Under the pieces are notes generated by a model, which saw nothing but the letters and a program-made list of their open reading frames with translations, had not been told where the DNA came from and made no database searches. The position numbers and the translations under genes are program-made. Shown here one piece after another: positions 1,601 through 33,600 of a DNA stretch of 64,000 nucleotides (positions are counted from its first letter, which is position 1; each line of letters starts with the position of its first letter). The DNA lies in contig JBFJHJ010000005.1 in NCBI GenBank assembly GCA_041613315.1, forward strand, positions 1 through 64,000, written 5' to 3'. This DNA is from Gemmatimonadales bacterium. Its GTDB lineage: Bacteria > Gemmatimonadota > Gemmatimonadetes > Gemmatimonadales > GWC2-71-9.

Positions 1601-1655
1601 CTGAACCGACCTTCACGCCAATCTGGCCCGGGGCTCACGGTCCGGCAGTGAGACT
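1601..1655 (+). promoter_or_regulatory. Putative response-regulator direct-repeat site and -10
   Basis: Half-sites CTGA 1601, TTCA 1612, CTCA 1634 in 11-bp phase; GAGACT 16 nt after the start of the last. Confidence 0.45.
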
Positions 1656-1682
1656 GCCGGTGGGCAACGACTGCCAGCGACC

Positions 1683-2186
1683 ATGCGCAACGAAACACGA
1701 CTTGTCATGACCGGCGGCTTGTTCGGGGGCCTGCTCGGTTACGCCACTATTGTGGTGTTCTTTGCCCTGCTCAACCTCGCCGCCGGACGCTCGATCTTCT
1801 ACACGGCGGCCCTGTTCGGATCGTCGATGTTCTACGGGCTCTCGGACCCGGAGGCGCTCGTGATCGCGCCCGGCCCCGTGCTGTCGTTCAACATGGTGCA
1901 CCTCCTGGCCTTTCTCGCTACCGGCTTTCTTGTCTCGTGGCTGATCGAGGAGGCCGAAGAGCACCCCGTCGCGCGCTACGCGATCCTGATCGCCCTGATC
2001 TTCGTGGCGGCGCATCTGTACGCGGGGATCCTGCTGTTCGCGCAACCACTCCTGGCGTCGTCGGGGTGGTGGCAGATCGGACTCGCGAGTGTGGCGGCCG
2101 CCGGCGTCATGGGGTGGTTCCTGCTGCGGCTGCACCCGAGGCTGCGGCGCGAGCTGCGGGAGATCCCGATGGGCGACGAGGGGTAG
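1683..2186 (+). CDS. Hypothetical integral membrane protein
   Basis: 4-5 hydrophobic segments. Confidence 0.8.
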   Translation: MRNETRLVMTGGLFGGLLGYATIVVFFALLNLAAGRSIFYTAALFGSSMFYGLSDPEALVIAPGPVLSFNMVHLLAFLATGFLVSWLIEEAEEHPVARYAILIALIFVAAHLYAGILLFAQPLLASSGWWQIGLASVAAAGVMGWFLLRLHPRLRRELREIPMGDEG

Positions 2187-2275
2187 TTCGAAGGACCTTG
2201 CACCACCAGCCGCAGCCCAAGCGCCGCGGGCCGGTCGGACCGGCCGCCGCACCGAATTGACGGCCACCCCGACCT

Positions 2276-2319
2276 GTAACGGCGAATTAATCGTATCTTC
2301 ACCGGCCGCTCGGTACGGT
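2276..2319 (+). promoter_or_regulatory. Direct-repeat array and -10 of hydrogenase operon
   Basis: GTAA 2276, TTAA 2287, TTCA 2298; TACGGT at 2314. Confidence 0.6.
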
Positions 2320-2399
2320 CATCCACGTTTCGTACCCGACCCGGCCGTCGAGCCTGTGCCCCCGTGTGGCCGGAGACCGTCCGACCGGAGATCCTCCGC

Positions 2400-3545
2400 A
2401 TGTTTGATCCGTTTTCTCATCCCTGGGCCGACGGGGACACGCTCGGCCAGCATCTCGCGTCGCGGGGTGTGAGCCGCCGGGAGTTCCTCGCCTTCTGCGG
2501 CGAGCTGTGTGCGATCCTGGGCTTGGGCCAAGCGATGGTGCCGAAGGTCGCAGACGCGCTCCAGCAACAGCGCCGCCCCACCGTCATCTGGCTCCAACTC
2601 CAGGAGTGCACCGGCTGCGTCGAGAGCGTGCTCCGGACGTCGGAGCCAACGATCGGTGACCTCGTGCTCGATCTCGTCTCCCTCGACTACCAGCACACGA
2701 TCATGGCGGCGGCGGGTGACGCGGCGGAGCGAGCGCTCAAGAAATCCATGGCCGACAACCGGGGCCGCTATCTGCTCGTCGTGACGGGATCCATCCCGCT
2801 GAAAGACGGCGGCATCTACACCACCATCGGGGGTCGCACGGCCAAGACGATCCTGGAGGAGGCGGGGGCGGGCGCCGCGGCGGTGATCGCCGTGGGGGCG
2901 TGCGCCCATTGGGGGAGTGTGCAGGCCGCGCGGCCGAATCCGACTGGGGCGGTGGGCGTGTCGGAGATCATCACGGACAAGCCGGTGGTCAACATCGCGG
3001 GATGCCCGCCCATCGCCGACGTCGTCACGGCGACCATCGCGCACTACCTCACGTTTGGCCGGATCCCCGGGCTCGACGCGGACGGCCGGCCCCTCTTCGC
3101 GTACGGCGCGCGGATCCACGATCAGTGCCCGCGCCGCGCCAACTACGACGCCGGCCAGTTTGTGGAGGTCTTCGACGACGACGCGGCGCGGCGGGGGTGG
3201 TGTCTGTACAAGGTCGGCTGTAAGGGACCCGCCGCCTTCTCGCCCTGCCCGATCTTCCAATGGAACACGCGGACGAGTTGGCCGATCGGCGCGGGGCACC
3301 CCTGCATTGGCTGCACGGAACGGCACTTCTGGGACACCATGACGCCGTTCTACGGGCGGCTCCCCAACGTGGCCGGCTTCGGCGTCGAGAGCCGAGTGGA
3401 CACCATCGGCGCCGCGCTGGCGGTCGGCGCCGCGGCCGGTGTGGCCGCACACGCGATCGCCACCGGCGTCCATCGGATGCGGCGCGGTCGCGAACTGCCC
3501 GTGATCGACAAGCCGCCGGCGCGGCAGGAGGGTGACCGTGGCTAG
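2400..3545 (+). CDS. hyaA: [NiFe] hydrogenase small subunit (group 1, Tat-exported, C-terminal anchor)
   Basis: Tat motif SRREFL; ECTGC, GCPP, HDQCPRR, WCLYKVGCKGP, HPCIGC; C-terminal TM helix. Confidence 0.95.
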   Translation: MFDPFSHPWADGDTLGQHLASRGVSRREFLAFCGELCAILGLGQAMVPKVADALQQQRRPTVIWLQLQECTGCVESVLRTSEPTIGDLVLDLVSLDYQHTIMAAAGDAAERALKKSMADNRGRYLLVVTGSIPLKDGGIYTTIGGRTAKTILEEAGAGAAAVIAVGACAHWGSVQAARPNPTGAVGVSEIITDKPVVNIAGCPPIADVVTATIAHYLTFGRIPGLDADGRPLFAYGARIHDQCPRRANYDAGQFVEVFDDDAARRGWCLYKVGCKGPAAFSPCPIFQWNTRTSWPIGAGHPCIGCTERHFWDTMTPFYGRLPNVAGFGVESRVDTIGAALAVGAAAGVAAHAIATGVHRMRRGRELPVIDKPPARQEGDRG

Positions 3546-5253
3546 AACCAAAGTCGTCGTCGACCCCATCACGCGCATCGAAGGACACTTGCGTATCGAG
3601 GTGCAAGCGGAAAACGCGCGGATCGCGGACGCGTGGGCATCGTCCACGCAGTTCCGCGGCATTGAGATCATCCTGCAGGGACGTGACCCGCGGGATGCCT
3701 GGGCGTTCACTCAGCGCATCTGCGGCGTGTGCACGGTCGTGCACGCCGTGGCGTCGTGCCGCGCCGTCGAAGACGCGCTCGACATCCGGATCCCGGCCAA
3801 CGCGAACATCATCCGGAATCTCATTCACGGGATGCAGTTCGTTCAGGACCACGTGGTCCACTTCTATCACCTCCACGCCCTCGACTGGGTGGATGTCGTG
3901 AGCGCGTTGTCGGCCGATCCGGCCGGGACGGCGCGGATCGCGCGGCAAGTGTCGCCGTGGCCGAACAACTCGGAGACCTACTTCCGCGAGGTACAGGACC
4001 GCCTCAAGAAATTCGTGTCCGGGGGCCAGCTCGGGATCTTCACTAACGGTTACTGGGGACACCCGGCGTACAAGTTGCCGCCGGAAGTGAACCTGCTCGC
4101 CGTCGCGCACTACCTCGAGGCGCTCGACTGGCAGCGCGACGTGATCCGGCTACACACCGTCTTCGGCGGCAAGAATCCGCACCCCAATTTCCTGGTGGGC
4201 GGCATGGCGTCGGCGATCAACCTCGACGACACCGCGACCATCAACGCCGAACGCCTCACGGATATCCGCGACATGATCCGGCGGGCGCGGCGGTTCGTCG
4301 AACAGGTGTACTGGCCCGATCTGGTGGCGATCGCCGGCTTCTACAAGGACTGGGCGGCGATCGGCGGGGGGACCGGCAACTTCCTCGCCGTCGGTGAGTT
4401 CCCGGAAAACGATGTCCGCGATCCGGCTTCCCTCTATCTCCCGCGCGGTATCATCCTGGGAAAGAACCTGAACGAGGTTCATCCCTACGACCACGAGAAG
4501 GTCAAGGAGTACGTCACGCACTCCTGGTATGAGTATGCGGGCGGCGATGAGGTGGGATTGCACCCCTGGGAGGGGGAGACGAAGGCGAAGTACGTCGGCC
4601 CCAACCCGCCGTGGACCTTCCTCCAGGACGAAGACAAGTACTCGTGGATGAAGGCGCCTCGGTACGACGGGCAGCCTATGGAGGTGGGACCCCTGGCCCG
4701 CATGCTCGTGGCGTACGGCGCCGGCCATGAGGGCGCCCGGGAGCTGGTGACCGAGGTGTTGAGCCGGCTTGGGGTGGGCCCCGCCGCGCTCTTTTCCACC
4801 TTGGGCCGCACGGCCGCCCGTGGCATTGAGACGGTGCTCCTCGCGCACCGTCTGGAGAAGTGGTACGACGACCTCGTCACCCGGATCAAGAGCGGTGACG
4901 TGACGACGTTTACGCGGGATCGCTGGGAGCCCAAGACCTGGCCGCGCGAAGCCCAGGGATACGGCTACCTCGACGCGCCCCGCGGCGCTCTGGGACACTG
5001 GGTCCAGATCCGGAACGAGAAGATCTCCCGCTATCAATGCGTCGTTCCCAGCACGTGGAACTGCTCGCCTCGGGACGCGGCCGGCCAGATGGGCCCGTAC
5101 GAGTCGGCGCTGGTGGACAACCACCCGCTCGTCGACCCCGAGCGTCCCGTCGAGATCCTCCGCACCATCCACTCGTTCGATCCGTGCATGGCCTGCGGCG
5201 TTCATGTCCTCGACGCAGCGGGTGAGCTGGTCACCGAGGTGAAGGTCCAATGA
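3532..5253 (+). CDS. hyaB: [NiFe] hydrogenase large subunit
   Basis: DPITRIEGH; L1 QRICGVCTVVH; L2 SFDPCMACGVH followed by a cleavable C-terminal tail. Confidence 0.97.
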   Translation: MTVARTKVVVDPITRIEGHLRIEVQAENARIADAWASSTQFRGIEIILQGRDPRDAWAFTQRICGVCTVVHAVASCRAVEDALDIRIPANANIIRNLIHGMQFVQDHVVHFYHLHALDWVDVVSALSADPAGTARIARQVSPWPNNSETYFREVQDRLKKFVSGGQLGIFTNGYWGHPAYKLPPEVNLLAVAHYLEALDWQRDVIRLHTVFGGKNPHPNFLVGGMASAINLDDTATINAERLTDIRDMIRRARRFVEQVYWPDLVAIAGFYKDWAAIGGGTGNFLAVGEFPENDVRDPASLYLPRGIILGKNLNEVHPYDHEKVKEYVTHSWYEYAGGDEVGLHPWEGETKAKYVGPNPPWTFLQDEDKYSWMKAPRYDGQPMEVGPLARMLVAYGAGHEGARELVTEVLSRLGVGPAALFSTLGRTAARGIETVLLAHRLEKWYDDLVTRIKSGDVTTFTRDRWEPKTWPREAQGYGYLDAPRGALGHWVQIRNEKISRYQCVVPSTWNCSPRDAAGQMGPYESALVDNHPLVDPERPVEILRTIHSFDPCMACGVHVLDAAGELVTEVKVQ

Positions 5254-5984
5254 CGAACACGGCGATGCCGGCCGAACCGACCGCCGCGATGGCGCGTCGC
5301 GGCGAGTCGACGCACTGCTGGGTGTATCTGTGGCACCTGCCCGTCCGGGTGATGCACTGGATCGCGGCCGTCGCTGTCGTGGCGCTGATCGTCACGGGCT
5401 TCTACATCGGCCGACCCTATTTCATGACGGGCGGGGAGGCCGCGTCACCGTTCACGATGGGTTGGATGCGGTTCATCCACTTTACGTCCGCCGCGGTGCT
5501 GATCGCCACGGGGATCGTGCGCATGTACTGGCTGTTCGTGGGCAACCGCTACGAGCGCTGGAAATCGCTGTTCCCGTACCATCCCACGGACTGGAAGAAC
5601 GCCTACCGGGTTCTGAAGAAGTACGTCTTGGTCATTCCCGAACGGGCGCCCCATTACCTGGGTCATAATCCCTTGCAGCAGATCAGCTACACCGCCCTGT
5701 ACGGCGTGGTGGTGGTGCAGGCGCTGACCGGGTTCGCGATGTACGGGCAGTCGACTCCCGGCGGGTTCTTCCATACCACCTTTGGATGGGTGACATCGTT
5801 GCTCGGCGGTATCCAAATGTTGCACTTCGTGCACCACGTGCTCACGTGGGTGTTCATCATTTTCATTCCCATCCACATCTACCTGACGGTGCGCGCCGAC
5901 GCGCTCCACCGCGAGGGGCGGGTGTCCTCGATGATCAGCGGCGGCCGGTTCGTCCGGTGCGACCTCGACTACGTCGATGACTGA
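5250..5984 (+). CDS. hyaC: Ni/Fe-hydrogenase cytochrome b subunit
   Basis: VRVMHW, RFIHF, GHNPLQ, HHVLTW, IHIY, SMISG. Confidence 0.93.
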   Translation: MTNTAMPAEPTAAMARRGESTHCWVYLWHLPVRVMHWIAAVAVVALIVTGFYIGRPYFMTGGEAASPFTMGWMRFIHFTSAAVLIATGIVRMYWLFVGNRYERWKSLFPYHPTDWKNAYRVLKKYVLVIPERAPHYLGHNPLQQISYTALYGVVVVQALTGFAMYGQSTPGGFFHTTFGWVTSLLGGIQMLHFVHHVLTWVFIIFIPIHIYLTVRADALHREGRVSSMISGGRFVRCDLDYVDD

Positions 5985-6489
5985 CCGGCCCGGCGGGGGA
6001 ACCGTCGTGATCGGCCTCGGGAATCCGCTCATGGCGGACGACGGCCTGGGGCTCGCCGCGCTGGAGGCCCTGCGGCACGGGTGGACGTTCGAGCCGCACG
6101 TGGAGCTCGTGGACGGCGGGACGTGGGGCATGAACCTGCTGTACCTCATTGAGGACGCCGACCGTGTGCTGTTGCTGGACGCGATCAACGTCGAGGCGCC
6201 CCCGGGTGACGTGGTCGAGCTGGAGCGCGACGCCCTGCCACGGATGTTCGGGCTCAAGATCTCGCCGCACCAGATTGACATGCGCGAAGTCCTGGCGTTG
6301 GCACAGCTCCGTGACACACTGCCACGGGAGATCGTGGCCATGGGGCTTCAGCCCGAGCGGGTGGAGATGTCCACGGAGGTCACGCCCGCGCTCCGCGCCG
6401 GGCTGCCGGCGCTCACGGAGCGCGCGCTCGCGCGGCTCGCCGCCTGGGGCCACCACTCTCGAGCGCGGAGCACCGCGGTCCGTGCATGA
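5977..6489 (+). CDS. hyaD: Hydrogenase maturation protease
   Basis: GLGNPLMADDGLG, DGGT, LDA, SPHQ. Confidence 0.93.
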   Translation: MTDRPGGGTVVIGLGNPLMADDGLGLAALEALRHGWTFEPHVELVDGGTWGMNLLYLIEDADRVLLLDAINVEAPPGDVVELERDALPRMFGLKISPHQIDMREVLALAQLRDTLPREIVAMGLQPERVEMSTEVTPALRAGLPALTERALARLAAWGHHSRARSTAVRA

Positions 6490-6742
6490 GATGAGCATCG
6501 CGCTCGAAGTGTGCCGAATAACGGAAGCGCACGTCGGCCGGGACCAGCTTCCGCACGTCGTGAGCGTCGCTCTCGAGATCGGTGACGATGCCGGCGTGGA
6601 AGTGGAGAACTTGCAGTTCTGCCTCGAAGCGCTCCTGGCTCACCCGCCCTTCGCCGGCGCCACGCCGGTGATCGCTCGGCGGCCGGGCGACGTGCTTCGG
6701 GTGACGCAGCTGGAGGTGGATGATGGCCATCCGAACCATTGA
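6482..6742 (+). CDS. hypA: Hydrogenase nickel chaperone HypA, short form
   Basis: GTG start gives MHEMSIA; LQFC; position before hypB; no CxxC motifs. Confidence 0.85.
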   Translation: MHEMSIALEVCRITEAHVGRDQLPHVVSVALEIGDDAGVEVENLQFCLEALLAHPPFAGATPVIARRPGDVLRVTQLEVDDGHPNH

Positions 6743-7394
6743 CGTACGGGAACGTGTGATGGCGAAGAACGACGAGTTGGCCGCCGAGGTTCGCCGGCGG
6801 CTCGCCGCGCACCGGGTCCGCGCGTTCAACCTGGTATCGTCGCCCGGATCGGGGAAGACGCTGCTGCTGGAGCGCACACTGGCACGGCTCGGCTGGCAGT
6901 TCGAGATCGCCGTCATCACGGGCGACGTGCAGACGCGCAATGACGCCGAACGATTGGCCCGACACACCGATCAGTTGGTCCAGGCCGTGGTGACGGGCGG
7001 CGCCTGCCACCTCGACGCGCGCCAGATAATGGCGGCCCTCGAGGCGATCGACCTCGCACAGACCGACATCCTCTTCATCGAGAACGTTGGCAACTTGGTC
7101 TGCCCCGCGAGCTGGGACCTCGGAGAGGCCGCGAAGATCGTCGTGTTCTCCGTCACCGAGGGTGAGGACAAGCCGCTCAAGTATCCGAAGATGTTCCAGC
7201 AGGCCGCGTACGCCGTCCTCAACAAGATGGATCTGCTGCCGTATCTGGAGTTCGACGTGCAGCGCGCCGTCGGCTACGCACGCGAGATCAATCCCGGCCT
7301 CCAGTTCTTCTTCACTTCGGCGCTGACCGGGCTCGGCCTCGACGAGTGGATTGAGTTCGTTCGCACCCAGACCGCGGAGGTCGCCACCGCGTGA
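6720..7394 (+). CDS. hypB: Hydrogenase nickel-insertion GTPase HypB
   Basis: SPGSGKT, GGACHLDA, ENVGNLVCP, KPLKYP, NKMD. Confidence 0.96.
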   Translation: MMAIRTIDVRERVMAKNDELAAEVRRRLAAHRVRAFNLVSSPGSGKTLLLERTLARLGWQFEIAVITGDVQTRNDAERLARHTDQLVQAVVTGGACHLDARQIMAALEAIDLAQTDILFIENVGNLVCPASWDLGEAAKIVVFSVTEGEDKPLKYPKMFQQAAYAVLNKMDLLPYLEFDVQRAVGYAREINPGLQFFFTSALTGLGLDEWIEFVRTQTAEVATA

Positions 7395-9700
7395 CGGCCG
7401 GCCTTCCCGGGACCGCAGAGCGCGTTGCGCTCCTGCTGCACGTGCGCGGCGTCGTGCAGGGAGTGGGGTTCCGGCCTTTCGTACACCGCTTGGCGCTCCG
7501 AGAAGGTCTGCGAGGGTGGGTGCGGAATGAGTCGGGCGAGGTACGCATCGCCATCGAGGGAACGTATGAACGTCTCCTCGCCTTCCTGACGGCCCTGGTG
7601 CACGACTCGCCGCCGCTCAGCCGCATAGACTCGCTCGAGATCGAGCCGACCGACCCAAGGCATCCGGAAGGCTTCGAGATCGCGGTGAGCCTCACCGATC
7701 AGGCGGAACGCCGCCAGTTGATCGCGCCCGATGTAGCGATGTGCCCGGCGTGCGAGAGCGAGTTGGTGGAACCCGGTAATCGCCGTTTCCGGTATCCGTT
7801 CATCACCTGCACCGACTGCGGTCCACGATTCACCGTGATCGAGTCGATGCCGTACGATCGAGAGCGGACGAGCATGCGCGCCTTCACGCAGTGCTCCGAC
7901 TGTCTCCGCGAGTACACGACGCCGTGGGACCGGCGGTATCACTCCGAAACGAATAGCTGCCCGGCCTGCGGGCCCCGTCTCACGCTCCTCGCGGCCGATC
8001 CGGGCTCCGCGCCCCAGGTTCGCACCGACCCGATCGCGTCGGCGGCACGGCTGCTTCGACTCGGGCTCATCGTCGCCGTGCGCGGCCTTGGCGGCTTCCA
8101 CCTTGCGGTCGATGCCACGAACGACGAGGCCGTCCGCCGACTCCGTCGCCGCAAGGGGCGCGAAAGGAAGCCCCTGGCCGTGATGGTGCGAACGCTTGAC
8201 GACGCCCGTCGCGTCGCCGTGATCGGCCCTACGGAGGAGCGGCTGTTGACCGGCCGCGAGCGCCCGATCGTGCTCCTGCGCCGCCTGCCACAGTCCGGAC
8301 TCGCCGCGTCGGTTGCGCCGGGTCTGACGGACGTGGGCCTGATGACCGCGTACACCCCGCTCCATCATGTGCTGCTGGACGCGGTCCAGCGCCCGCTCGT
8401 GATGACCAGCGGCAACGCGAGTGAAGAGCCGATTGCCACCGGTGTGGACGAGGCGCGGCAGCGGTTGCGTGACATCGCAGACGCGTTTCTCGTGCATGAC
8501 CGCGAGATCGTCGCCCGATACGACGACTCGGTGGTGCGGGTGGTCGAAGATACTCCGGTCTTCCTCCGCCGCGCACGCGGCTACGCGCCGCTGCCGCTCG
8601 AGTTGCCGCTCGCCGCGGTCCGGCCGCTGGTCGCGGTCGGCCCCCACCTGAAGAACACCTTCACGCTGGCCCAGGGCCGCACCGCCTGGGTCAGCCAGCA
8701 CATCGGCGATCTGGACGACCTCGAAACGCTGGAATACTTCCGCCGAACGCTTGCGGAGTATCGGCGACTCTTCGGGGTGGATCCCGACATCGCGGTGCGC
8801 GACGCGCACCCCGGGTACCTCTCGACGCGCGTGGCCGACGAGCTGGGGCTCGAGCACGTGATCTCGGTCCAGCACCACCACGCACACATCGCCGCCGTGG
8901 CCGCCGAACATGGCCGCACCGACCGCGTGGTGGGCGTGGCGTATGACGGCACCGGTTACGGGGACGACGGGACCGTGTGGGGCGCAGAAGTCCTCGTCGC
9001 GAACCTGGCCGGCTACGAGAGAGTTGGGCACCTCACCGCTGCGCCCCTCCCCGGAGGCGACCTCGCAATTCGCCGGCCGTGGCGGGCCGCCCTTGGGTAC
9101 CTCTCTCTCGCTCCGGAGGCAGCGTCGGCCTTCGCCCGCGCGTTCCACGGGGTCGACCCCGCAGAGCGCGAGCTGGCGACGCGTCAGATCGAGCGCCGGT
9201 TGAACGCGCCGCTCGCATCCTCGATGGGACGCCTGTTCGACGCCGCGGCCGCCGTCCTCGGCGTGCGCGGCGTCGCCCACTACGAGGGCCAGGCCGCCAT
9301 GGAACTCGAGGCGTTGGCCGGCGAGCGCGTCGGGGCCGCGCTGCCGTTTCCGCTCGGCGAGGACACAGACGGCCGCTGGCTCCTCGACCCGCTCCCGCTC
9401 CTCGTGGCGCTGGGCGAGGGCATCCAGCGCGGCATATCGGCTGCCGACCTCGCCGCAGCGTTTCATGAGAGCGTCGCCGTCGCGACGTCCGAGCTGGCGT
9501 GTCGCGCCGCCCGGCGAGCCGGCCTCGACACGGTCGCTCTGGGAGGCGGGGTATTCCAAAACGCCCGGCTACTTGCGGCCACCCGGCGACGACTCGAAGA
9601 TGAGCGGCTGCACGTGCTCGTGCCCCAGCGGTTGAGTCCCAATGACGGTGCCATCAGCTACGGTCAGGCGGCCGTCGCGGCGGCGCTCCTGGAGCGGTGA
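7391..9700 (+). CDS. hypF: Carbamoyltransferase HypF
   Basis: GVVQGVGFRPFV, CxxC-x18-CxxC zinc fingers, QHHHAH, NDGAISYGQ. Confidence 0.97.
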   Translation: MTAGLPGTAERVALLLHVRGVVQGVGFRPFVHRLALREGLRGWVRNESGEVRIAIEGTYERLLAFLTALVHDSPPLSRIDSLEIEPTDPRHPEGFEIAVSLTDQAERRQLIAPDVAMCPACESELVEPGNRRFRYPFITCTDCGPRFTVIESMPYDRERTSMRAFTQCSDCLREYTTPWDRRYHSETNSCPACGPRLTLLAADPGSAPQVRTDPIASAARLLRLGLIVAVRGLGGFHLAVDATNDEAVRRLRRRKGRERKPLAVMVRTLDDARRVAVIGPTEERLLTGRERPIVLLRRLPQSGLAASVAPGLTDVGLMTAYTPLHHVLLDAVQRPLVMTSGNASEEPIATGVDEARQRLRDIADAFLVHDREIVARYDDSVVRVVEDTPVFLRRARGYAPLPLELPLAAVRPLVAVGPHLKNTFTLAQGRTAWVSQHIGDLDDLETLEYFRRTLAEYRRLFGVDPDIAVRDAHPGYLSTRVADELGLEHVISVQHHHAHIAAVAAEHGRTDRVVGVAYDGTGYGDDGTVWGAEVLVANLAGYERVGHLTAAPLPGGDLAIRRPWRAALGYLSLAPEAASAFARAFHGVDPAERELATRQIERRLNAPLASSMGRLFDAAAAVLGVRGVAHYEGQAAMELEALAGERVGAALPFPLGEDTDGRWLLDPLPLLVALGEGIQRGISAADLAAAFHESVAVATSELACRAARRAGLDTVALGGGVFQNARLLAATRRRLEDERLHVLVPQRLSPNDGAISYGQAAVAAALLER

Positions 9701-9702
9701 CA

Positions 9703-10146
9703 ATGCGAATCCCCCGGTCGGTCGAGCAGGAACACGACGAACTGCATCATGAGCTGGACGAGGTATCGCGGCTCGGCGGACAAACCGGCGACGCCGCCAA
9801 GCGCCTGGCCCGCATTCTGCAGCCCCACTTCATCCGCGAGAACGACTACGCCGTCCCGCCGCTCTCGCTCCTGCAGCAGCTGACGCGGGGCACCGTGACG
9901 GCCGAGATGCGGTGGGTCTTACCCCTTGTCGAGCGTCTCAAGAGTGAGATGCCGCTGATGCTGCGAGAGCACGATGCGATCCGAGGTGCGCTCCACGACC
10001 TGGCTACCGCGGCTGAAAGCGAAGGGCACACGAACGCAAGGCACTTCGCCGAGCGGCTCCAGCGGCACGCCAAGATGGAGGAGGAGGTGCTCTATCCGGC
10101 CGCGATCCTCGTTGGAGAACTCGTCAAGTCGCGACTCGCGACATGA
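9703..10146 (+). CDS. Hemerythrin-like (HHE) domain protein
   Basis: EHDELH, HFIRE, EHDAI, HAKMEEEVLYP. Confidence 0.8.
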   Translation: MRIPRSVEQEHDELHHELDEVSRLGGQTGDAAKRLARILQPHFIRENDYAVPPLSLLQQLTRGTVTAEMRWVLPLVERLKSEMPLMLREHDAIRGALHDLATAAESEGHTNARHFAERLQRHAKMEEEVLYPAAILVGELVKSRLAT

Positions 10147-10153
10147 GGGTGAC

Positions 10154-10453
10154 ATGTGCCTAGGCATTCCCGGAAGAATCATCGAGATCCATGACGATGC
10201 CGGCCTCCCGATGGGAGTGGTGGACTTTGGGGGGGTCCGGCGTGAGGTCTGCCTGGCGTACGTCGCTGATCAGGTGCGTTCGGGAGACTACGCCATCGTC
10301 CACGTGGGCTTCGCGATCTCGAAAGTCGACGAGGCGGAGGCCATGCGAACCTTCGAGGCGCTGCGTCAGATGAGCCAACTCGACGAGCTCGAGTGGATGA
10401 AGGAAGTGGCCGAGCGCAGCCTGGCCGGCGCCCCGCCCACGGAGGACCCGTGA
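10154..10453 (+). CDS. hypC: HypC/HybG chaperone
   Basis: MCLGIPG, VDFGG, VHVGFAI. Confidence 0.95.
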
Positions 10454-11562
10454 GGTACTTGAGTGAGTACCGCGACCCCGCGCTCGCCCGACTCCTGATC
10501 GACCGGATCCGGAGCGCCGCGACACGCCGCTGGGTGCTGATGGAAGTGTGCGGCGGGCAGACCCACACGATCGTCAAGCAGGGCCTGAACGAGATTCTCG
10601 CCGACCAGGTGGAGATGATCCACGGCCCCGGGTGCCCGGTGTGCGTGACACCGTTGGAGCAGATCGACCGCGCGCTCCACCTGGCCGCCGACCCGCGGGT
10701 GATCTTCACGTCCTTCGGCGACATGCTCCGCGTGCCCGGCACCACGTCCGACCTGTTCCAGATCCGCGCCGGGGGCGGCGACGTCCGCGTGGTGTACTCC
10801 CCGCTCGATGCCCTCGACCTCGCCCGGCGACATCCCGACCGTGAAGTCGCGTTTTTCGCGGTGGGCTTCGAGACGACGGCGCCGGCGAACGCGATGGCGG
10901 TGTGGCGGGCGCGAACCCTCGGCGTTCGCAATTTCAGCGTGCTCGTGTCACACGTCACCGTGCCACCGGCCATGGTGGCGATCCTCCAGTCGCCGGTCAA
11001 CCGCGTGCAGGGATTCCTCGCCGCCGGCCACGTCTGCACGGTGATGGGTTGGACGGAGTATGAGCCGCTGGCCCGCAAGTACCGTGTCCCCATCGTCGTC
11101 ACGGGTTTCGAACCGCTCGACATCCTGGAAGGGATGCTGATGGCGGTCCGCCAGCTGGAAGCCGGGCGGTTCGAGGTCGAGAACCAGTATGTCCGTTCGG
11201 TGCGCCGTGAGGGCAACCAGCCCGCACAGGAACTCATCGCTCGGGTATTTCGGTTGGTGGACCGCTCATGGCGCGGCATCGGTGAGATCCCGGCCAGCGG
11301 ACTGGCGCTGACCGACGAATTCGCCGAGTTCGATGCAGAACGCAAGTTCGGGCTCGGAGACATCCGCGCGACCGAACCGCCCGAGTGCCGAGCCGGCGAT
11401 GTCCTGCGCGGCCAGCTCAAGCCCATGCAGTGCGCCGCCTTCGGTTCGCGGTGCACACCCGAGTATCCGCTGGGCGCGCCCATGGTATCCTCGGAGGGCG
11501 CGTGCGCTGCCTACTACAATTACGGCCGCTACCGGTCCGTCGCTCCCGGGATGCTGTCGTGA
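10450..11562 (+). CDS. hypD: HypD
   Basis: [31 protein letters not shown]. Confidence 0.96.
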
Positions 11563-12623
11563 CCGCCACGCGCCCGCATGCGGACGGGATGGCGTGCCCG
11601 CTCCCGCACGCGGCGCTGGACCGTGTGCAGCTGGGACACGGCTCCGGCGGCAAGATGAGCGCGGCGCTGCTGCGCGAGCGCTTCCTCCCACGCTTCGCGA
11701 ACGAGGTACTGCTCCGCCTGGGTGATGGCGCGGTGGTGCCTGCGACCGGCGAGGAGCTGGCCGTCTCGACCGACAGCTTCGTCGTGCACCCCCTGGAGTT
11801 CCCGGGCGGGAACATCGGGCATCTGGCGGTGCACGGCACCCTGAACGACATCGCGATGATGGGCGCCGAGCCCCGCTACCTCGCGGCCGGGTTCATCCTC
11901 GAGGAGGGGTTGCCTCTCGACGTATTGGACCGCGTGCTCGACGCGATGGCCGGCGCGGCCCGCCTCGCCGGCGTGCCGTTGATCACCGGGGACACGAAGG
12001 TGGTCGAGCGGGGGAAGGCGGACGGGATGTTCATCAACACGACCGGCGTGGGCGTCGTGCAGGACGGCTTCCGTCCCGACCCCCGCGGCGCGCGGCCCGG
12101 TGACTGCGTGCTCGTCACCGGTCCTATCGGCCGTCACGGTATCGCCGTCATGGCCGTTCGCGAGGGGCTCGCCTTCGAGGTCGAAGTCGAGAGTGACACG
12201 GCGGCCGTGTACCCCCTTGTGCGACTGCTGCGGAGCCGTGCCGGCCCCGGGGTGCACACCCTGCGCGATCCGACCCGGGGCGGCGTCGCCAGCGCGCTCA
12301 ACGAGATCGCGGCCGCCGCCGGAGTCGGCATCGTCCTCGACGAGAGCCGGCTCCCGATCCCCGAGCCGGTGGCGGCCGCCTGCGAGATGCTGGGCCTCGA
12401 CCCGCTCTACGTCGCCAACGAGGGCATCTTCGTCGCGATCGTCGCCGCCGATGTGGCGCAGGCGGCGGTCGCGGCACTGCGTTCGCATCCGCTGGGTGCC
12501 GGGACCGTGACGATCGGGTCGGTCGTGAATACCCATCCCGGCATGGTCGTCCTCCAAACCGGCCTGGGCGGCAGCCGCATCGTCGACATGTTGCCCGGCG
12601 ACCAACTGCCCCGCATCTGCTGA
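11559..12623 (+). CDS. hypE: HypE
   Basis: HGSGG, TGDTKV, RDPTRGG, C-terminal LPRIC. Confidence 0.96.
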
Positions 12624-13718: not shown

Positions 13719-13761
13719 CGCTCCACGCCTGACACGTGTGGACCTGAACCGGACTGGTGAG

Positions 13762-22512: not shown

Positions 22513-22563
22513 AGGAGCCTTCATGATCCATTAAAGACCTGCTTACGCCCCCAGCGGTACGGT
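22509..22563 (+). promoter_or_regulatory. Direct-repeat array and -10 upstream of response regulator (likely autoregulatory)
   Basis: ATGA 22509, TTCA 22520, TTAA 22531, CTTA 22542; TACGGT at 22558. Confidence 0.65.
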
Positions 22564-23259: not shown

Positions 23260-24639
23260 ATGTACTCCCTGCGCCGCACCCTCGCGGTGCGGCTCTCACT
23301 CACCATCTTCCTCGCCCTCCTGCTCATCGCGTTCTGGGCATCGATGGGTGCGCAGCACATCCTCCGGGACGAGCTGGACCGCGGGCTCGCCGCGGCGGCT
23401 CAGCTCGAGTCGGCGGTCCTCGCGACCGGCCTGCCGCTCCCCGGGCATCACGGCCCGCCGGAGGAAGCCACCTTCGTCCTCGAGGTCAACCGCTTCGTTG
23501 CCGTGCGGGACACGGCGGGCGGGATCCTCCAGGGCAATACGGTATTGGCGCTCGACCTCCCCCTCGACCGTCGGAGCTTCGAGCGCGCCCGGGCCGGCCA
23601 CGACGTGTGGATCACGCAGCCGTGGCGCGGTGACAAGGTGCGCTCGCTGTATCACCCGGTCCCGGCGGGTAGTGGCCCGAACCGGGCGGTGGTCCAGGTC
23701 GCGGCGTCCCTGAAGCCGCTGGCCGACGACCGCCGACGGATGATGGTACTCATGCTCGGAACGGTCGTCCTCGGAACCGTGGCCACCGCCATGGGCGCCG
23801 GCTGGCTCGCCGGTTCGGCCGTGACCCCCGTCCACGAGATCACCCAGCAAGCGGACGCCATCACCGCGGGCACCACCGGCCAACGCATCACCGCCCATGC
23901 CGATGTCGAGGAGTATCATGGGTTGATCACCGTGTTGAACCGTATGCTCGACCGCCTCGACCGCGCTCTCGCGGCCGAACGCCGCATCATTGCCGACGTG
24001 GGGCACGACTTGCGCACACCGATCACGGCGATGCGGGGCCAGATCGAGATCGCCCTCCGCGGTGCCCGCGAACGCGAACAGTACCGCGACGTCTTGCGGA
24101 GCGTGCTGGAAGAGGTGGATCGGCTCAACTCGATCAGCGAGGCGCTCGTACTCCTGGCCCGCATCGAAGCCGGCGAGCTGCGTCCGGAGCGACGCCCCGC
24201 GGACCTGGTCGATCTGCTGGAACAAGCCGCCGGACGCGCTCGGAGCCGGGCCGGCAACCGCGTGATCCGGGTCGCCGCCGACGGTGAGGTTCGGGTGGCG
24301 GTGGATGAAGGAATGATCCGCACGGTCGTCGATCACTTGTTGGACAACGCCGTACGTCACACGCCCGCCGGAACCACGATCGACGTGGCGGCGCGCGCCG
24401 ACGGTTCCACTGTCGCGCTGTCCGTCGACGACGACGGGGCGGGCATCTCCCCTGAGGCGTTACCGCACCTGTTCCAGCGGTTCTACCGCTGCGACGAGGC
24501 CCGCACCCGCACTGCCGGAGCTGGCCTCGGCCTCAGCATCGCCGCCGCGATCGCCGCCGCTCACGGAGGCACCATCGCCGCCGATCACTCTGACCGGGGC
24601 GGCCTCCGCATTACGCTCCACCTCCCGCGGCTCACGTAG
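23260..24639 (+). CDS. Membrane sensor histidine kinase (2 TM, HAMP)
   Basis: Two TMs, HAMP, GHDLRTP, LLDNAVRH, DDGAG, GAGLGL. Confidence 0.93.
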   Translation: MYSLRRTLAVRLSLTIFLALLLIAFWASMGAQHILRDELDRGLAAAAQLESAVLATGLPLPGHHGPPEEATFVLEVNRFVAVRDTAGGILQGNTVLALDLPLDRRSFERARAGHDVWITQPWRGDKVRSLYHPVPAGSGPNRAVVQVAASLKPLADDRRRMMVLMLGTVVLGTVATAMGAGWLAGSAVTPVHEITQQADAITAGTTGQRITAHADVEEYHGLITVLNRMLDRLDRALAAERRIIADVGHDLRTPITAMRGQIEIALRGAREREQYRDVLRSVLEEVDRLNSISEALVLLARIEAGELRPERRPADLVDLLEQAAGRARSRAGNRVIRVAADGEVRVAVDEGMIRTVVDHLLDNAVRHTPAGTTIDVAARADGSTVALSVDDDGAGISPEALPHLFQRFYRCDEARTRTAGAGLGLSIAAAIAAAHGGTIAADHSDRGGLRITLHLPRLT

Positions 24640-24685
24640 TCTTCACACCTGGTTGTCCTTCCATTCATCGAACCAAGGCGATCTT
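24631..24685 (+). promoter_or_regulatory. Direct-repeat array upstream of DUF2892 gene
   Basis: CTCA 24631, TTCA 24642, (TTGT 24653), TTCA 24664; GATCTT at 24680. Confidence 0.55.
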
Positions 24686-26812: not shown

Positions 26813-26868
26813 ATGAAGATGTCTTCAGAATCCCGTCACCCTCCTTTCAGCGCGGGTCGGCTTAACTG
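26813..26868 (+). promoter_or_regulatory. Direct-repeat array upstream of nos operon
   Basis: ATGA 26813, TTCA 26824, GTCA 26835, TTCA 26846; TTAACT at 26862 (imperfect -10). Confidence 0.62.
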
Positions 26869-26900: not shown

Positions 26901-27422
26901 ATGCCGATCGTCATGCTTGCCCGAAGCTCGGGCGGCGTCGGAATACGCGGCTACCTCGTGTCGCTCACGCTGTTCGGCGCCCTCCTCGGTACCGCCGCGT
27001 GCGGCGGACGGACCGAAGGCGCTCGCGAGCAGATGGGCATGGAGCACCGCGGGACGGGACGGGTGGCCGAGCAAACGCCGCCATCGGGCACCGGAGCCGC
27101 GTCTGCGGCGGCGCCCGCACCTGGATCACCCATCGATGAGGCGCTCGCCGAGCGCGGCGAGCAGTTGTTCCAGTCCAAGGGCTGCATCGGCTGCCACACG
27201 ATCGGGAAGGGCCGCCTCACGGGCCCCGACCTCGCAGGGGTGGTCGATCGGCGCAACTACGACTGGCTCATGGCCATGATCACGAACCCCGACTCCATGC
27301 TCAAGAACGACGCGGCGGCGCGCCAGCTCTTCGCCGAGTACATGACCCCGATGTTGAACATGGGCGTGACGCAGGACGAAGCGCGGGCGCTCTACGAGTT
27401 CCTGCGCGAGGAATCCCACTGA
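26901..27422 (+). CDS. nos-associated monoheme cytochrome c (likely lipoprotein; start uncertain)
   Basis: TAAC lipobox-like; CIGCH; GPDL; Y.TPM; directly upstream of nosZ. Confidence 0.88.
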   Translation: MPIVMLARSSGGVGIRGYLVSLTLFGALLGTAACGGRTEGAREQMGMEHRGTGRVAEQTPPSGTGAASAAAPAPGSPIDEALAERGEQLFQSKGCIGCHTIGKGRLTGPDLAGVVDRRNYDWLMAMITNPDSMLKNDAAARQLFAEYMTPMLNMGVTQDEARALYEFLREESH

Positions 27423-27486
27423 CACCTCGGCGCGGCGCGGTGCCGCCGCTGTCGAGATCTACACCAACGAACACGGAGAGACCGCT

Positions 27487-29451
<1,965 letters not shown>

Positions 29452-29476
29452 GCCGATCGCGGCTCGCGCTCCCCCG

Positions 29477-29530
29477 CTCCCCCGTCTCCCCGCGTCCTCC
29501 GGCCTGCCGGACGACGCGCGGGCGGGGGAG
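29477..29530 (+). other. Long intercistronic stem-loop after nosZ
   Basis: Nested pairings CTCCCCCG/CGGGGGAG, CGCGTC/GACGCG, TCCGGC/GCCGGA. Confidence 0.55.
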
Positions 29531-29577
29531 ATGGGCACAGACCACCGCGGCGGACCGCCGCAATCGAGTGACGTACC

Positions 29578-30183
29578 ATGGATAGAGTGACACAGTTCTT
29601 CCAAGGCCAGCTGTCATATACGAGCCGCGTCCTGATCGTCGCGGCGACGCTGGCCATTCTGCCCGGGATCTTCCTTCCGACATGGAAGATCACCCTACAC
29701 GCGCCACAGTACCCTGGCGGGTTGGAGCTCGTGATCTACCCGAACACCGTGGAAGGGGACGTGCGCGAAGTGAACCTGTTGAATCACTACATCGGAATGC
29801 ACGAGATCGAGCCGGACGAGTTCCCGGAGTTTCGGTTCATCCCGTTCTTCATCCTCAGGTTTCTCGGGTTCGCGCTTCTCACCGCGCTCATTGGCCGCAT
29901 GCCGATCGCGGCGCTGGGATGGATGGACTTCGTCCTCTTCGGCGCTGTGATGCTCTACACGATGCAACATTGGCTCTATCAATACGGGCACAACCTCTCG
30001 CCCGACGCGCCGCTCCGGATCCAGCCGTTCACCCCGGGCGTCCTCGGCACTACGTCGGTGGGGCAATTCACCGTCTCGAGCTGGCCGGCCGTCGGTGCGA
30101 TCCTGATGGGCGTCGCGGGGCTGATTGGTCCCGTGATCGTGCTCTTCGAATGGCGGCGGCACCGAAAGGGCGGGGCGACGTGA
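29578..30183 (+). CDS. nosB: NosB-like membrane protein of clade II nos clusters
   Basis: W.I.L.APQYP.GL, NLLNHYIGM, YGHNL.P.AP; follows nosZ. Confidence 0.85.
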   Translation: MDRVTQFFQGQLSYTSRVLIVAATLAILPGIFLPTWKITLHAPQYPGGLELVIYPNTVEGDVREVNLLNHYIGMHEIEPDEFPEFRFIPFFILRFLGFALLTALIGRMPIAALGWMDFVLFGAVMLYTMQHWLYQYGHNLSPDAPLRIQPFTPGVLGTTSVGQFTVSSWPAVGAILMGVAGLIGPVIVLFEWRRHRKGGAT

Positions 30184-31523
30184 CCGCGACGCTCCCCGCG
30201 CTGCTCGCCGCTCTCCAGGCCGGCGTTCTCGTCGTCGGGCCAAGCGGACCGTACCGCACGATCGGCGACGCGCTCGCGGCTGCCCGCCCCGGCGACACGG
30301 TGCGCGTGGCTCCCGGCATCTATCGGGAGCGGCCCGTGGTGCAGCGTCCGGTCGTCCTCCTGGGCGCGCCCGGCGCCGTGATCGACGGAGGCGGGGAAGG
30401 GGTGGTGGTTCGCATCGACGCGCCCGCGACCGTCCGGGGATTCACGATTCGCGGCTCCGGCACCGACCAGTCGTACGAGGACGGCGGCATCCTCGCCGGT
30501 GGGGCGCATGGCCTCGTCGTCGAGGAGAACCGGTTCGAGGACGTCCTGTTCGGCATCTACGTCAAGCAGAGCGATGACGTCGTGCTGCGGCACAACGTCA
30601 TCGAGGGTAAGGACCTGCCCCTCCCTCTCCGAGGCGACGGGATCCGCCTCTGGTACAGCCGCCGCGGCCGGATCGAAGACAACCGCGTGTGGCGGGTGCG
30701 GGACGTGGTGATCTGGTTCTCCGACAGCGCCGAGATCCGCCGCAACCGTGTGAGCGACAGCCGGTACGGCCTGCACTACATGTACAGCAACCACAACCGC
30801 TTCGAGGGGAATGCGTTCGTCGCCAACGATGTCGGCGCCTTCATCATGTACTCCGACGATATCTGGTTCCGTGGGAATCTCTTCGCCGAAGCCCGCGGCA
30901 CGACGGGGCGAGGCCTGGGCTTCAAAGACGCGGATCGAATCACCGCCGACTCGAATGTCATGATCAAGAACGCCGTGGGCATCTCGATCGACAACTCGCC
31001 CCACAGCGCCGGTGTGACCAACCGGTTCAGCGACAACGTCGTCGCCTACAACGACGTGGGCGTAGCGCTGCTCCCGTCGGTACACTCCAACGATTTCGCC
31101 GGCAACCAGTTCGTGGACAACGTGCAACCGGTGCGGGTGTCGGGTGGCGGCACCGCACGCGCCAACCGTTGGATCGGCAACTACTGGAGCGACTACGCCG
31201 GGTTCGACGCCAATCGCGACGGCTACGGCGACACGCCGTTCGTCCTTCAACGCCTGTCGGACGACCTCCTGGCGAAGCACGACGCCCTCGAGCTGTTTCA
31301 GCTGAGCCCGGCGGTCAGCGCGCTCAACACCCTGGGGCGCGTCCTCCCCGTGCTTCAGCCCCAGGCGGTCGTGGTGGACTCGAGCCCGCGCATCGCCTCG
31401 GCACCGCCGGCCGACGAAGGCGGGGCCGCCGCGCCGGCGGCCGCGGTCGCGTTCCTCGCGGTGGCGGTCCTGGTACTCGCCGCGACACCTCATTTCCGGC
31501 GCGCGACTCGGAGGCCGAGGTGA
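30180..31523 (+). CDS. nosD: NosD maturation protein
   Basis: Beta-helix repeats; RGDGIRLW, RYGLHYMYS, GNYWSDY.G.D...DG.GD.P. Confidence 0.94.
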   Translation: MTATLPALLAALQAGVLVVGPSGPYRTIGDALAAARPGDTVRVAPGIYRERPVVQRPVVLLGAPGAVIDGGGEGVVVRIDAPATVRGFTIRGSGTDQSYEDGGILAGGAHGLVVEENRFEDVLFGIYVKQSDDVVLRHNVIEGKDLPLPLRGDGIRLWYSRRGRIEDNRVWRVRDVVIWFSDSAEIRRNRVSDSRYGLHYMYSNHNRFEGNAFVANDVGAFIMYSDDIWFRGNLFAEARGTTGRGLGFKDADRITADSNVMIKNAVGISIDNSPHSAGVTNRFSDNVVAYNDVGVALLPSVHSNDFAGNQFVDNVQPVRVSGGGTARANRWIGNYWSDYAGFDANRDGYGDTPFVLQRLSDDLLAKHDALELFQLSPAVSALNTLGRVLPVLQPQAVVVDSSPRIASAPPADEGGAAAPAAAVAFLAVAVLVLAATPHFRRATRRPR

Positions 31524-32446
31524 TTCGCGCTACCGGGCTCAGCAAGGCGTTCGGCGCGCACTGCGTGCTGGACGGCGTTGACGTGACCGTGCGGCCGGGC
31601 GAGCGGGTCGCGCTCCTCGGCCTGAACGGGGCAGGCAAGACGACGTTCATGCGGTGCCTGTTGGGACTCACGCGATTCTCCGGCACCCTCACCATCGGGG
31701 GTCATGACGTCCGCCGAGAGCCACGGGAGGCGAAGGCGCGTCTGGGGTATGTACCGCAACGCGCGCCGCACTTTGGCGGCAACCTCGACGACGTCGTGAC
31801 GTTCTTCGCGGCCCTCCGCGCCTGCGGCGCCGAGGATGTGCGGGCTCAGCTCGAGGATCTGGGGCTCTCGCTGGCGGCGCACGGCGACAAGCCGATGCGG
31901 GCCTTGTCAGGAGGGATGCTGCAGAAGGTGCTGCTCGGGCTCGCCCTCGGCGCCGAGGTGCCCCTGCTGCTCCTCGACGAACCCACCGCGAACCTCGACG
32001 CCCGCGCCCGGCGCGAGTTTCTGCGCATTCTGCGGGACGTGCCGCGCAGCACGACCATTCTCCTCGCGTCGCACCGCTTCACCGACGTCACCGCTGTGGC
32101 CGATCGGCTGCTCGTGCTGCACGCCGGCCGGATTGTCTTCGACGGGTCCATGGAGGATCTGTGGGTCCGGGCGGGGAGCGATGCCACCCTGTGGATGCAG
32201 CTGGCGCCTGGGGCGCGGTCCGACGCCGAAGATCGGATCCGGGCGAGGTTCCGCGCACCGGTCCTGCTCCGGAACGGCGCCGCGATTGGCGTCCGAGTCG
32301 AGCGGCAGGCCCGCGCCGATGTGCTCGTGGAGCTGCGACAGGCCGGCCTCCATATCGAGGATTTCTGGACCGAAGTGCCCTCCCTCAACGATCTGCTCGA
32401 CGCGCTCCTCGGACCGCGCGACGCGAGTGGGAGCGCCGGCCGATGA
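31520..32446 (+). CDS. nosF: NosF ABC ATPase
   Basis: GLNGAGKT, LSGGM, LLDEPT; nos context. Confidence 0.92.
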   Translation: MIRATGLSKAFGAHCVLDGVDVTVRPGERVALLGLNGAGKTTFMRCLLGLTRFSGTLTIGGHDVRREPREAKARLGYVPQRAPHFGGNLDDVVTFFAALRACGAEDVRAQLEDLGLSLAAHGDKPMRALSGGMLQKVLLGLALGAEVPLLLLDEPTANLDARARREFLRILRDVPRSTTILLASHRFTDVTAVADRLLVLHAGRIVFDGSMEDLWVRAGSDATLWMQLAPGARSDAEDRIRARFRAPVLLRNGAAIGVRVERQARADVLVELRQAGLHIEDFWTEVPSLNDLLDALLGPRDASGSAGR

Positions 32447-33264
32447 CGGCGCGTGTCGGATTGATCGTCCAACGTGAGCTCGCGACGTCGCTGCAGAGCC
32501 GCTGGTTCTTCGTGTATTCGGGAATCGTGCTCGCCGCCGGGGTGATCCTCGCCACGCTCGGCTTGAGCGACTTCGCCATCCACGGCTACCGCGGTCTGGC
32601 CAAGGCGTTCGCGGGGCTCGTGCACCTCGCCTTGCTCTTCGTGCCGCTGCTGGCGCTGTTCCCCGCGACCGCAGCGATCACCGAAGACCGAGAAAGCGGG
32701 GCCCTCGAGTACGTCCTGGCGCAGCCCGTCAGCTTCGGCGAGGTGTTCGCCGGCAAGTGGGGAGGGGTGAGCGCGGCGCTCCTCCTCGCCCTCACCGCCG
32801 GCTTCGGCGTCGCGGGGGCGGTTGCCGCCCTGCGCGGCGTCCCGCCCGGCCTGCTGGTGGCGCTCTACGGGTTCGTGGTGCTCCTGGCGCTCGCCTTCGT
32901 CTCCGTCGGCCTCCTCTGCTCCGTCGTCAGCGAGTCACGCGCCCGCGCCACGACCATGGGCATCGTCGTGTGGCTCGTCCTGGTCGCCCTGGGGACGCTC
33001 GGGATCATGGTGGCCTTCGTGCGGTGGGGACTGCCGGAGACCGTGCTCGCGGTGTGGACGTTCGTGAATCCCGTCGAGGCCTTTCGAATCGGCGTGCTCA
33101 GTATCCTCGATCCCGACCTGAGTCTCCTCGGGCCGGTCGGAGCGGGAATCGTGACGCGCGTAGGTAGCGCCGGAACCGCCGGGCTTGCGGCGGTCGCGCT
33201 GAGCGTGTGGGTCGTGGCCCCCGCGCTGCTTGGCTGGTGGCGGTTCGCCCGGGGGCGGATCTAG
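32443..33264 (+). CDS. nosY: NosY ABC permease
   Basis: Multi-TM; DRESGALEYVLAQP, NPVEAFR. Confidence 0.9.
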   Translation: MTARVGLIVQRELATSLQSRWFFVYSGIVLAAGVILATLGLSDFAIHGYRGLAKAFAGLVHLALLFVPLLALFPATAAITEDRESGALEYVLAQPVSFGEVFAGKWGGVSAALLLALTAGFGVAGAVAALRGVPPGLLVALYGFVVLLALAFVSVGLLCSVVSESRARATTMGIVVWLVLVALGTLGIMVAFVRWGLPETVLAVWTFVNPVEAFRIGVLSILDPDLSLLGPVGAGIVTRVGSAGTAGLAAVALSVWVVAPALLGWWRFARGRI

Positions 33265-33298
33265 TAAGGAAGCACCCGCCTCCGGCTGCCCGCGTTCG

Positions 33299-33538
33299 TC
33301 AATCGTCGCCGAGACCCAGGACGATCCAGAGTCCGTGGAGGTGTTCGTCCCGACTCAGCGTCAATGGGGGCTCGGGTTGCGCGCGGGGCTCGGCTCCCGA
33401 GGCAGTGGACCGCCCAAGGGATGCCACCGTCGCCACGTCCGGGAACTCGAGCGCGACGACCTCGCGACCTGTCGCCTCCTTGAGCAGTGTCCGCTGTTCG
33501 TCGGTAAGCAGAAGCTGCAGCTTCGTCGGCGCCACCAT
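33299..33538 (-). CDS. Small hypothetical protein (79 aa)
   Basis: Strong SD AAGGAGGG; own promoter motif upstream. Confidence 0.65.
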   Translation of the reverse strand: MVAPTKLQLLLTDEQRTLLKEATGREVVALEFPDVATVASLGRSTASGAEPRAQPEPPLTLSRDEHLHGLWIVLGLGDD

Positions 33539-33567
33539 CGCGCCCTCCTTGCGATCGGCCGTAGCTC

Positions 33568-33600
33568 AACCTACCGGGACGCCAATGAAGAGATTGTGAA
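33568..33600 (-). promoter_or_regulatory. Direct-repeat array and -10 (minus strand)
   Basis: Minus strand reads cTTCAcaatctcTTCAttggcgtcccggTAGGTT; 11-bp period, 16-nt offset. Confidence 0.65.

Follow-up and report, generated by a model that had tools for sequence, protein, structure and literature searches.

Bases 1-33600 of the window, by which we mean the whole stretch of 64,000 nucleotides analysed (Gemmatimonadales bacterium, assembly GCA_041613315.1, contig JBFJHJ010000005.1, positions 1 to 64,000), form an island in which hydrogenase, universal stress protein (USP), oxidase, kinase/regulator and nitrous oxide reductase (nos) genes stand together. Its promoters share a phased repeat, which is likely, judged from sequence, to be the operator of the OmpR/PhoB-family response regulator encoded at 22571. 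We consider it probable that this operator serves a low-oxygen activation of the island units, driven by a kinase with a haem-type GAF domain that is encoded directly upstream of the regulator. The source genome comprises 2.63 Mb, is 83% complete, and the window is the start of its contig C5. Gene calls in the scripts were made with our own hexamer model and are approximate.

The original prediction had placed nine arrays of TTCA-like half-sites in 11-bp phase upstream of nine transcription units, each followed by a hexamer exactly 16 nt after the last half-site. All nine were found at the starts given, and the hexamers are five TANNNT, three GANNNT and, at nos, TTAACT. The enrichment over genome background proposed as a check was confirmed and is specific to the 11-bp period of the island upstream regions: at least two half-sites in this phase occur in 11 of 21 island regions vs 36 of 1279 elsewhere in the genome, and each of the periods 8-10 and 12-14 is found in one of the 21. 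When each site was left out in turn, every one ranked between 2 and 21 among 2363 upstream regions. Training on 145 sites from relatives gave a model that is only partially independent, since these were picked by a pattern derived from this genome; it produced 22 genome-wide matches above the maximum of the reversed sequence, all of them intergenic. Eight of the nine sites are recovered, the two-half-site array at 33600 being missed; the remaining matches are a tenth site (21200, minus strand), the 13664 array read in reverse, and 12 sites off the island. Shuffle p-values of the nine training sites are circular and were not relied on. The proposed control of the island by the regulator agrees with the island sites; a regulon limited to the island does not agree with the 12 further matches. 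Among these are sites in front of genes for a beta-barrel protein, a haem-synthesis-type radical SAM enzyme, OsmC, ccmE and a Ser/Thr kinase, and of units for sulfide:quinone reductase-DsrC-DsrE and 2-oxoacid:ferredoxin oxidoreductase. A weaker, 10-bp-spaced version had also been proposed before the CBS gene and had to be given up: the words are present (15625..15648, plus strand), score at background (shuffle p 0.43) and have no counterpart at 11 orthologous USP-CBS junctions read by eye. Contigs C2 (69120, 69204), C7 (5983), C14 (58288) and C19 (56927) also contain short tandem repeats of heptamers that include TTCA and have no relation to the operator.

The anatomy of the operator was deduced from the intergenic DNA of 44 related loci. 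Here the order TRAA-TTYA peaks at gaps of 6, 17 and 28 with 96, 82 and 44 counts, any other gap reaching at most 10, each site being counted on both strands; TTYA precedes TTYA at gaps of 7 and 18 (94 and 72 counts, at most 15 elsewhere), and no gap peak was obtained for the opposite order, TTYA before TRAA. From these peaks the first unit is often an inverted half-site. At 22509 the palindrome ATGAAG-N4-CTTCAT is followed by direct units, and an inverted first unit is present in 44 of 89 cores of relatives. The operator is composed of one inverted half-site and then up to three direct ones at 11-bp steps; its earlier description as a direct repeat holds for the later units and was corrected for the first unit at 1601, 22509 and 26813. 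Without selecting for a -10 element, NANNNT was found exactly 16 nt after the last half-site in 74 of the 89 cores (41 TA, 21 GA), at +15 in 11 and at other offsets in at most 7. Because the last half-site lies 16 nt before the -10 element, the direct units cover the place of the -35 element, which we infer to be an activator position.

The regulator, consisting of a receiver and a winged-helix domain and associated with 11-bp repeats at a fixed distance from the -10 element, has the features of the OmpR/PhoB family and was found in 36 of 60 relatives. With a matrix trained on this window, the array was detected before 36 of 40 regulator orthologues, all 24 ygaP genes and seven of ten genes of one USP group, and before none of 41 sensor genes and none of 27 second-kinase genes. 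A strict pattern yielded 95 matches in the 36 regulator-positive genomes (26 with a match) vs five in the 24 negative ones (four with a match), a co-occurrence that is overstated, as the genomes are kin and the negatives belong mostly to two other families; the reversed pattern gave five matches in 61 genomes. The earlier proposal that the regulator uses these arrays and acts on its own gene is supported by the array before its orthologues and by this co-occurrence over 60 genomes, as far as sequences can tell.

The best matches of the sensor kinase in the PDB are the GAF domains of the mycobacterial Dos kinases (E 1.7e-36 to 2.3e-35; we take entry 2vzw to be DosT), and Pfam assigns to its 416 residues one GAF and a HisKA domain. 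In Dos sensors His149 is the haem ligand and Tyr171 the distal residue (PMC4082495); equivalents of both are present in all 42 orthologues aligned, and at the Glu87 position 40 of 41 have Gly, as in DosT. A Gly at this position is reported to favour a stable O2 complex, which is disputed according to the review (PMC4082495). The gene lies directly upstream of the regulator in 35 of 37 loci, the other two being situated at contig ends. No operator was found in front of it (upstream shuffle p 0.12), so its expression would be constitutive. A 702-aa reading of the open reading frame (ORF) was rejected: the coding signal and all homologues begin at 21262. Of 39 testable loci, 28 have a second, membrane-bound kinase behind the regulator and 11 lack it; in the latter a P1B ATPase usually comes next, accompanied in three loci that were checked by a cbb3 oxidase. 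As the sensor is kept in these 11 loci, the constant partner of the regulator is the haem-type kinase. Of six specificity positions examined, three are identical in the two kinases of the island, and some of these also in other kinases. In one sister-family genome (G045, locus L134) the sensor kinase is present and no regulator orthologue was found. That the combination of a Dos-type GAF with HisKA is unique to the phylum was considered and rejected, such pairings occurring widely: of 28 hand-picked top GAF matches, 19 carry HisKA, six HisKA_3 and three neither at cut-off. One protein of 987 aa (P0140) combines a Dos-type GAF, HisKA, a receiver and an OmpR-type DNA-binding domain in one chain. 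All nine non-Gemmatimonadota Dos-like kinases scanned are of the HisKA_3 type, with LuxR-type neighbours in four of four cases.

For the targets in relatives, 70 loci with 71 of the 95 sites were examined, the other 24 being located at the regulator or in loci already covered. By our own gene calls all 71 sites are intergenic. The first genes behind them encode Hsp20 (six), hydrogenase small subunits, CBS proteins and cytochromes c (three each, one CBS target being assigned via its identity to a scanned copy), OsmC, YgaP and archease-RtcB (two each), and an Acg-family gene lies behind the one ygaP target scanned. Single targets are a USP, a pyruvate formate-lyase (PFL) activase with PFL, a PFOR-type enzyme, NirK-like and NapA-like proteins, ApbE and a radical SAM protein. 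According to our own sorting about 27 of the 71 sites fit dormancy or anaerobic metabolism. Immediately after the -10 element of the operator, a conserved stretch of about 280 nt with no called gene was observed in L157, L170 (from about 144, plus strand) and L222; it is 90% identical between two relatives and 74-77% identical over about 110 nt to the third, ends in a hairpin and is a candidate regulon RNA. It has no Rfam match and was not found in this genome. In L177 and L214 a terminator-like hairpin lies 140-260 nt behind the operator and no gene was called there; these stretches are further candidate small RNAs.

Eighteen regulator-positive genomes carry nosZ; two were left out, G001 with too short a contig and G008, where an array lies before ygaP. 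Twelve of the 16 remaining nos promoters score at shuffle p <= 0.015 and nine show the phased array by eye, and none of seven regulator-negative nos loci reaches 16 bits. In many relatives an Rrf2-family gene with three Cys and one His in its product stands beside nosZ or its cytochrome (L024:16227-16670, L027, L028, L031, L034, L041, L059, L101, L107, L109, L113-L115, L117), often together with an AT-rich element, ATCAT-N-ATGATAAT, at the nos promoter; the Rrf2-family gene is absent from the island studied here. The Rrf2-type gene is a possible second control of nos. Among seven regulator-negative nosZ loci of the sister family, three (L122, L123, L124) have a divergent RirA/NsrR-like Rrf2 gene in front of nosZ, so results from one family may not transfer to the other.

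Several observations weigh against a low-oxygen regulon under this regulator. Unrelated or unknown genes lie behind more than half of the 71 sites and possible efflux genes behind two or three, and the hsp20 and archease-rtcB genes of this genome carry no array. Of the regulator-positive nos loci four of 16 lack the array, three of the 12 matches fall on the AT-rich element, possibly that of an Rrf2 repressor, one regulator-negative nos locus reaches p 0.035, and the nos -10 element of the island lacks the usual A at the second position. The co-directional partner of the regulator is the membrane kinase, which occupies the usual cognate position, and a regulator tree with long-branch outgroups settled neither monophyly nor direction. 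Furthermore, genes for ZIP transporters or for a heavy-metal ATPase lie beside the system, and six paralogous regulators, 57-67% identical, share the operator and nearly the same recognition helix; five of the six are encoded beside CusCBA-type efflux or multicopper-oxidase genes. The operator is tied to the regulator subfamily and not to oxygen, and low oxygen cannot be read from the motif by itself.

Against this background three other explanations were weighed. The first, which we regard as improbable, is that the haem kinase reads nitric oxide (NO), carbon monoxide (CO) or redox state instead of the loss of O2, so that a nitrogen-oxide or general dormancy regulon would result. DosS and DosT are described as responding to NO and CO as well (PMC4082495), the targets include nos, NirK-like and NapA-like genes, and the sensor lacks the GAF-B domain that tunes ligand specificity and stability in DosS. 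The disputed Gly at the Glu87 position speaks for O2 instead; a shortage of oxygen is indicated by the cbb3 and ba3-like oxidases, PFL and hydrogenase, and many system-bearing genomes have no nosZ.

About as improbable as a response to NO, CO or redox, and marginally more so, is that the same regulator and operator respond mainly to periplasmic copper via the membrane kinase, the GAF kinase serving another partner. The best family matches of both proteins are heavy-metal models, although below cut-off: the regulator scores 220 bits against TIGR01387, its best NCBIfam match (cut-off 279), and the second kinase 241 bits against TIGR01386 (cut-off 293). The paralogues place the operator at efflux genes, and for Corynebacterium glutamicum CopR a similar binding site is described, TGAAGATTTnnTGAAGATTT, whose reverse strand contains TTCA at an 11-bp period (PMC3140484). 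The island also supplies copper, nickel and haem enzymes, NosZ and the oxidases being copper enzymes, and metal transporters are adjacent. However, efflux or detoxification genes were found at none of the ten island sites and at most at two or three of the 71 in relatives, and copper does not explain the Hsp20, USP, CBS, Acg, PFL and hydrogenase targets. The periplasmic His motif of CusS binds metal; the FHEG motif is present in all six paralogous kinases vs none of 29 island-type kinases. Moreover, the membrane kinase is absent from 11 of 39 loci in which sensor, regulator and operator persist. CusRS-like Gemmatimonadales pairs with FHEG motif and the same operator are those of L125-L130. G004, G006, G007 and G033 hold both systems, with cross-talk being possible.

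The weakest alternative, which is very unlikely, is that the arrays are bound by another protein: the other OmpR-type regulator, encoded on contig C16, a protein of the PhoB or Crp/Fnr type, or one not contained in the assembly. In its favour, several OmpR-family regulators share TTCA-like repeats with an 11-bp period, the assembly is incomplete and two Crp-family genes are present, but the array tracks the promoter and the presence of the island regulator across genomes, and no operator match lies near the C16 regulator, the only other full-length OmpR-type regulator found in the genome. In the C16 locus (L150, 46857-50583, minus strand) the regulator gene is flanked by genes for a soluble PAS-HisKA kinase and for a membrane kinase and stands upstream of TonB-ExbBD-like genes. 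PhoB control was rejected, the PhoB model being matched with 216 bits vs a cut-off of 296 and no PstS-type gene exceeding its cut-off in this incomplete genome. The FNR box is TTGAT-N4-ATCAA; FNR control was likewise rejected, as the window contains no box with fewer than two mismatches, and no cysteine-rich Crp/Fnr protein was found, the two Crp-family proteins having none and two cysteines.

Activation of the island by the haem kinase through regulator 22571 could be pictured as follows. When oxygen falls, or NO or CO binds, the DosT-like kinase would phosphorylate the regulator; with O2 bound it would be off, by analogy to DosT. Dimers of the regulator would then cover the -35 region and recruit the housekeeping polymerase to weak promoters, activating the regulator's own gene in a positive feedback as well as the hydrogenase, stress-protein, oxidase and N2O-reductase units. 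The second kinase, made from the induced unit, may act as a phosphatase or as a second input. We infer haem binding, phosphotransfer, polymerase recruitment and feedback from the deduced proteins and promoters.

In comparison with known systems the closest likeness in function is that to DosS/DosT-DosR (DevS/DevR) of mycobacteria, as anticipated by the suggestion of a DosR-like regulon under an OmpR-type instead of a NarL-type regulator, which is strengthened by the adjacent kinase with its Dos-type haem-GAF and by DosR cargo families in relatives. Both have a haem-type GAF with proximal His and distal Tyr, here with the Gly of DosT, and two kinases per regulator, one of them apparently not autoinduced, as for dosT. 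As targets, USP and CBS families occur in this genome and Hsp20, Acg and RtcB in relatives; Rv2626c of the DosR regulon is presumably a CBS protein. Among the DosR regulon members named in PMC5309233 are USPs, HspX, RtcB, Rv2032/Rv3131 and a metalloprotease, and the overlap in cargo extends over USPs, Hsp20, Acg, RtcB, the metalloprotease and a P-type ATPase (PMC5309233). In contrast, DosS and DosT possess GAF-A in tandem with GAF-B, whereas one GAF is found here, and HisKA_3 kinases with a NarL/LuxR-type regulator are replaced by HisKA and an OmpR-type regulator (Trans_reg_C); a phased repeat operator and targets including clade II nos and haem-copper oxidases are further differences. By its sequence the system would work like DosT-DosR and does not belong to it, differing in domain order, kinase class and regulator family.

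CopRS of C. glutamicum and CusRS-type systems have the same regulator and membrane kinase subfamily, and a TTCA-containing 11-bp repeat is reported for CopR (PMC3140484). The single site of CopR lies at a copper-resistance locus; in the present system there are at least ten sites per genome, the membrane kinase is devoid of the His motif and an extra haem-type kinase is present. As the regulator and the membrane kinase have relatives in metal-efflux two-component systems that share the operator, the present system reads as a metal-type module coupled to a Dos-type gas sensor. ResDE and SrrAB are comparable systems beside ArcAB. Control of low-oxygen genes by an OmpR-type regulator with 11-bp arrays has a precedent in ArcA of Escherichia coli, likewise an OmpR-family regulator of anaerobic adaptation, which is described as using two to five repeats at 11-bp spacing (PMC3798270). 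ArcB, according to the same source, reads the quinone pool and ArcA mostly represses (PMC3798270), in contrast to the soluble haem-type sensor, the sites in activator position and the inverted first unit of the present system.

The coordinates of the likely operators and of the genes of the island are listed in Table 1.

Table 1. Likely operators and genes of the island (positions in the window).
Feature	Position	Strand	Remark
Operator + GANNNT -10	1601..1655	+	before 159-aa membrane protein
159-aa membrane protein	1707-2186	+	behind operator 1601
Operator + -10 of hydrogenase unit	2276..2319	+	
[NiFe]-hydrogenase small, large, cytochrome b subunits, protease, hypABF, hemerythrin, hypCDE	2364..12623	+	
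Operator + -10 of USP gene	12658..12701	+	
USP gene	12762-13667	+	behind operator 12658
Operator + -10 of USP-USP-CBS-oxidase run	13664..13718	+	
Two USPs, CBS protein, three-subunit haem-copper oxidase	13738..18440	+	
Operator + GANNNT -10	19989..20032	+	before 99-aa ORF
99-aa ORF	20083-20382	+	behind operator 19989
163-aa ORF	20596-21087	-	homologues in three related loci
Tenth operator	21179..21233	-	before 163-aa ORF; absent from the original prediction
Soluble sensor kinase, 416 aa	21262..22512	+	GAF, HisKA, HATPase
Regulator operator (inverted unit + three direct units) + -10	22509..22563	+	
OmpR/PhoB-family response regulator	22571..23254	+	likely binder; Response_reg + Trans_reg_C (Pfam)
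Second kinase, membrane, HAMP-HisKA	23260..24639	+	co-directional with regulator
Operator + GANNNT -10 of ygaP-like/cytochrome c/porin unit	24631..24685	+	
ygaP-like gene, cytochrome c, porin	24696-26768	+	
Operator + atypical -10 (TTAACT) of nos unit	26813..26867	+	
Cytochrome c, clade II (Sec-dependent) nosZ, nosB-like, nosD, nosF, nosY	26901..33264	+	
79-aa ORF	33299-33538	-	behind weakest operator
Two-half-site operator + -10	33568..33600	-	weakest in set; leave-one-out rank 12

The island encodes four USPs. The genes of the nos unit, with nosZ of clade II, were identified with TIGR04246 (870 bits vs a cut-off of 625), TIGR04247 and Pfam, and the label nosB was assigned from the position of the gene. 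Judged from its gene layout the haem-copper oxidase is ba3-like; its genes have no operator of their own, and their control is presumably exerted through read-through from the USP-USP-CBS run; a weak terminator-like site was noted at 16082. Two tandem ZIP-family transporter genes without operator (18458-19917, minus strand) are located between oxidase and sensor, an arrangement that recurs in 17 of 44 related loci. HypA (6482-6742) is short, its 86 aa spanning only the first 69 of 112 profile positions. A search of window positions 1-36000 against Rfam gave no match, and scans for consensus promoters and terminators gave matches at chance level only.

Whether most of one Gemmatimonadales family runs its low-oxygen and dormancy programme, including clade II nosZ, via a DosT-type oxygen-binding haem kinase, this kinase having appropriated an OmpR regulator of the copper-response type together with its operator and the old metal kinase having been disarmed or lost, we hold to be evenly balanced. 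If this is true, a Dos regulon would have been reassembled out of other components, and for nosZ of this phylum a first oxygen switch would be defined. In the open literature searched we found no description of this system and none of a regulator of Gemmatimonadota nos genes. Sensor, regulator, operator and target list are testable with purified proteins and reporters, with no need to grow the host, and the operator pattern can mark genomes which place nosZ under such control. Gemmatimonadota are described as abundant in agricultural soils and as reducing N2O once oxygen is depleted (PMC9530729); the switch proposed here would explain how N2O consumption is turned on in many of them.

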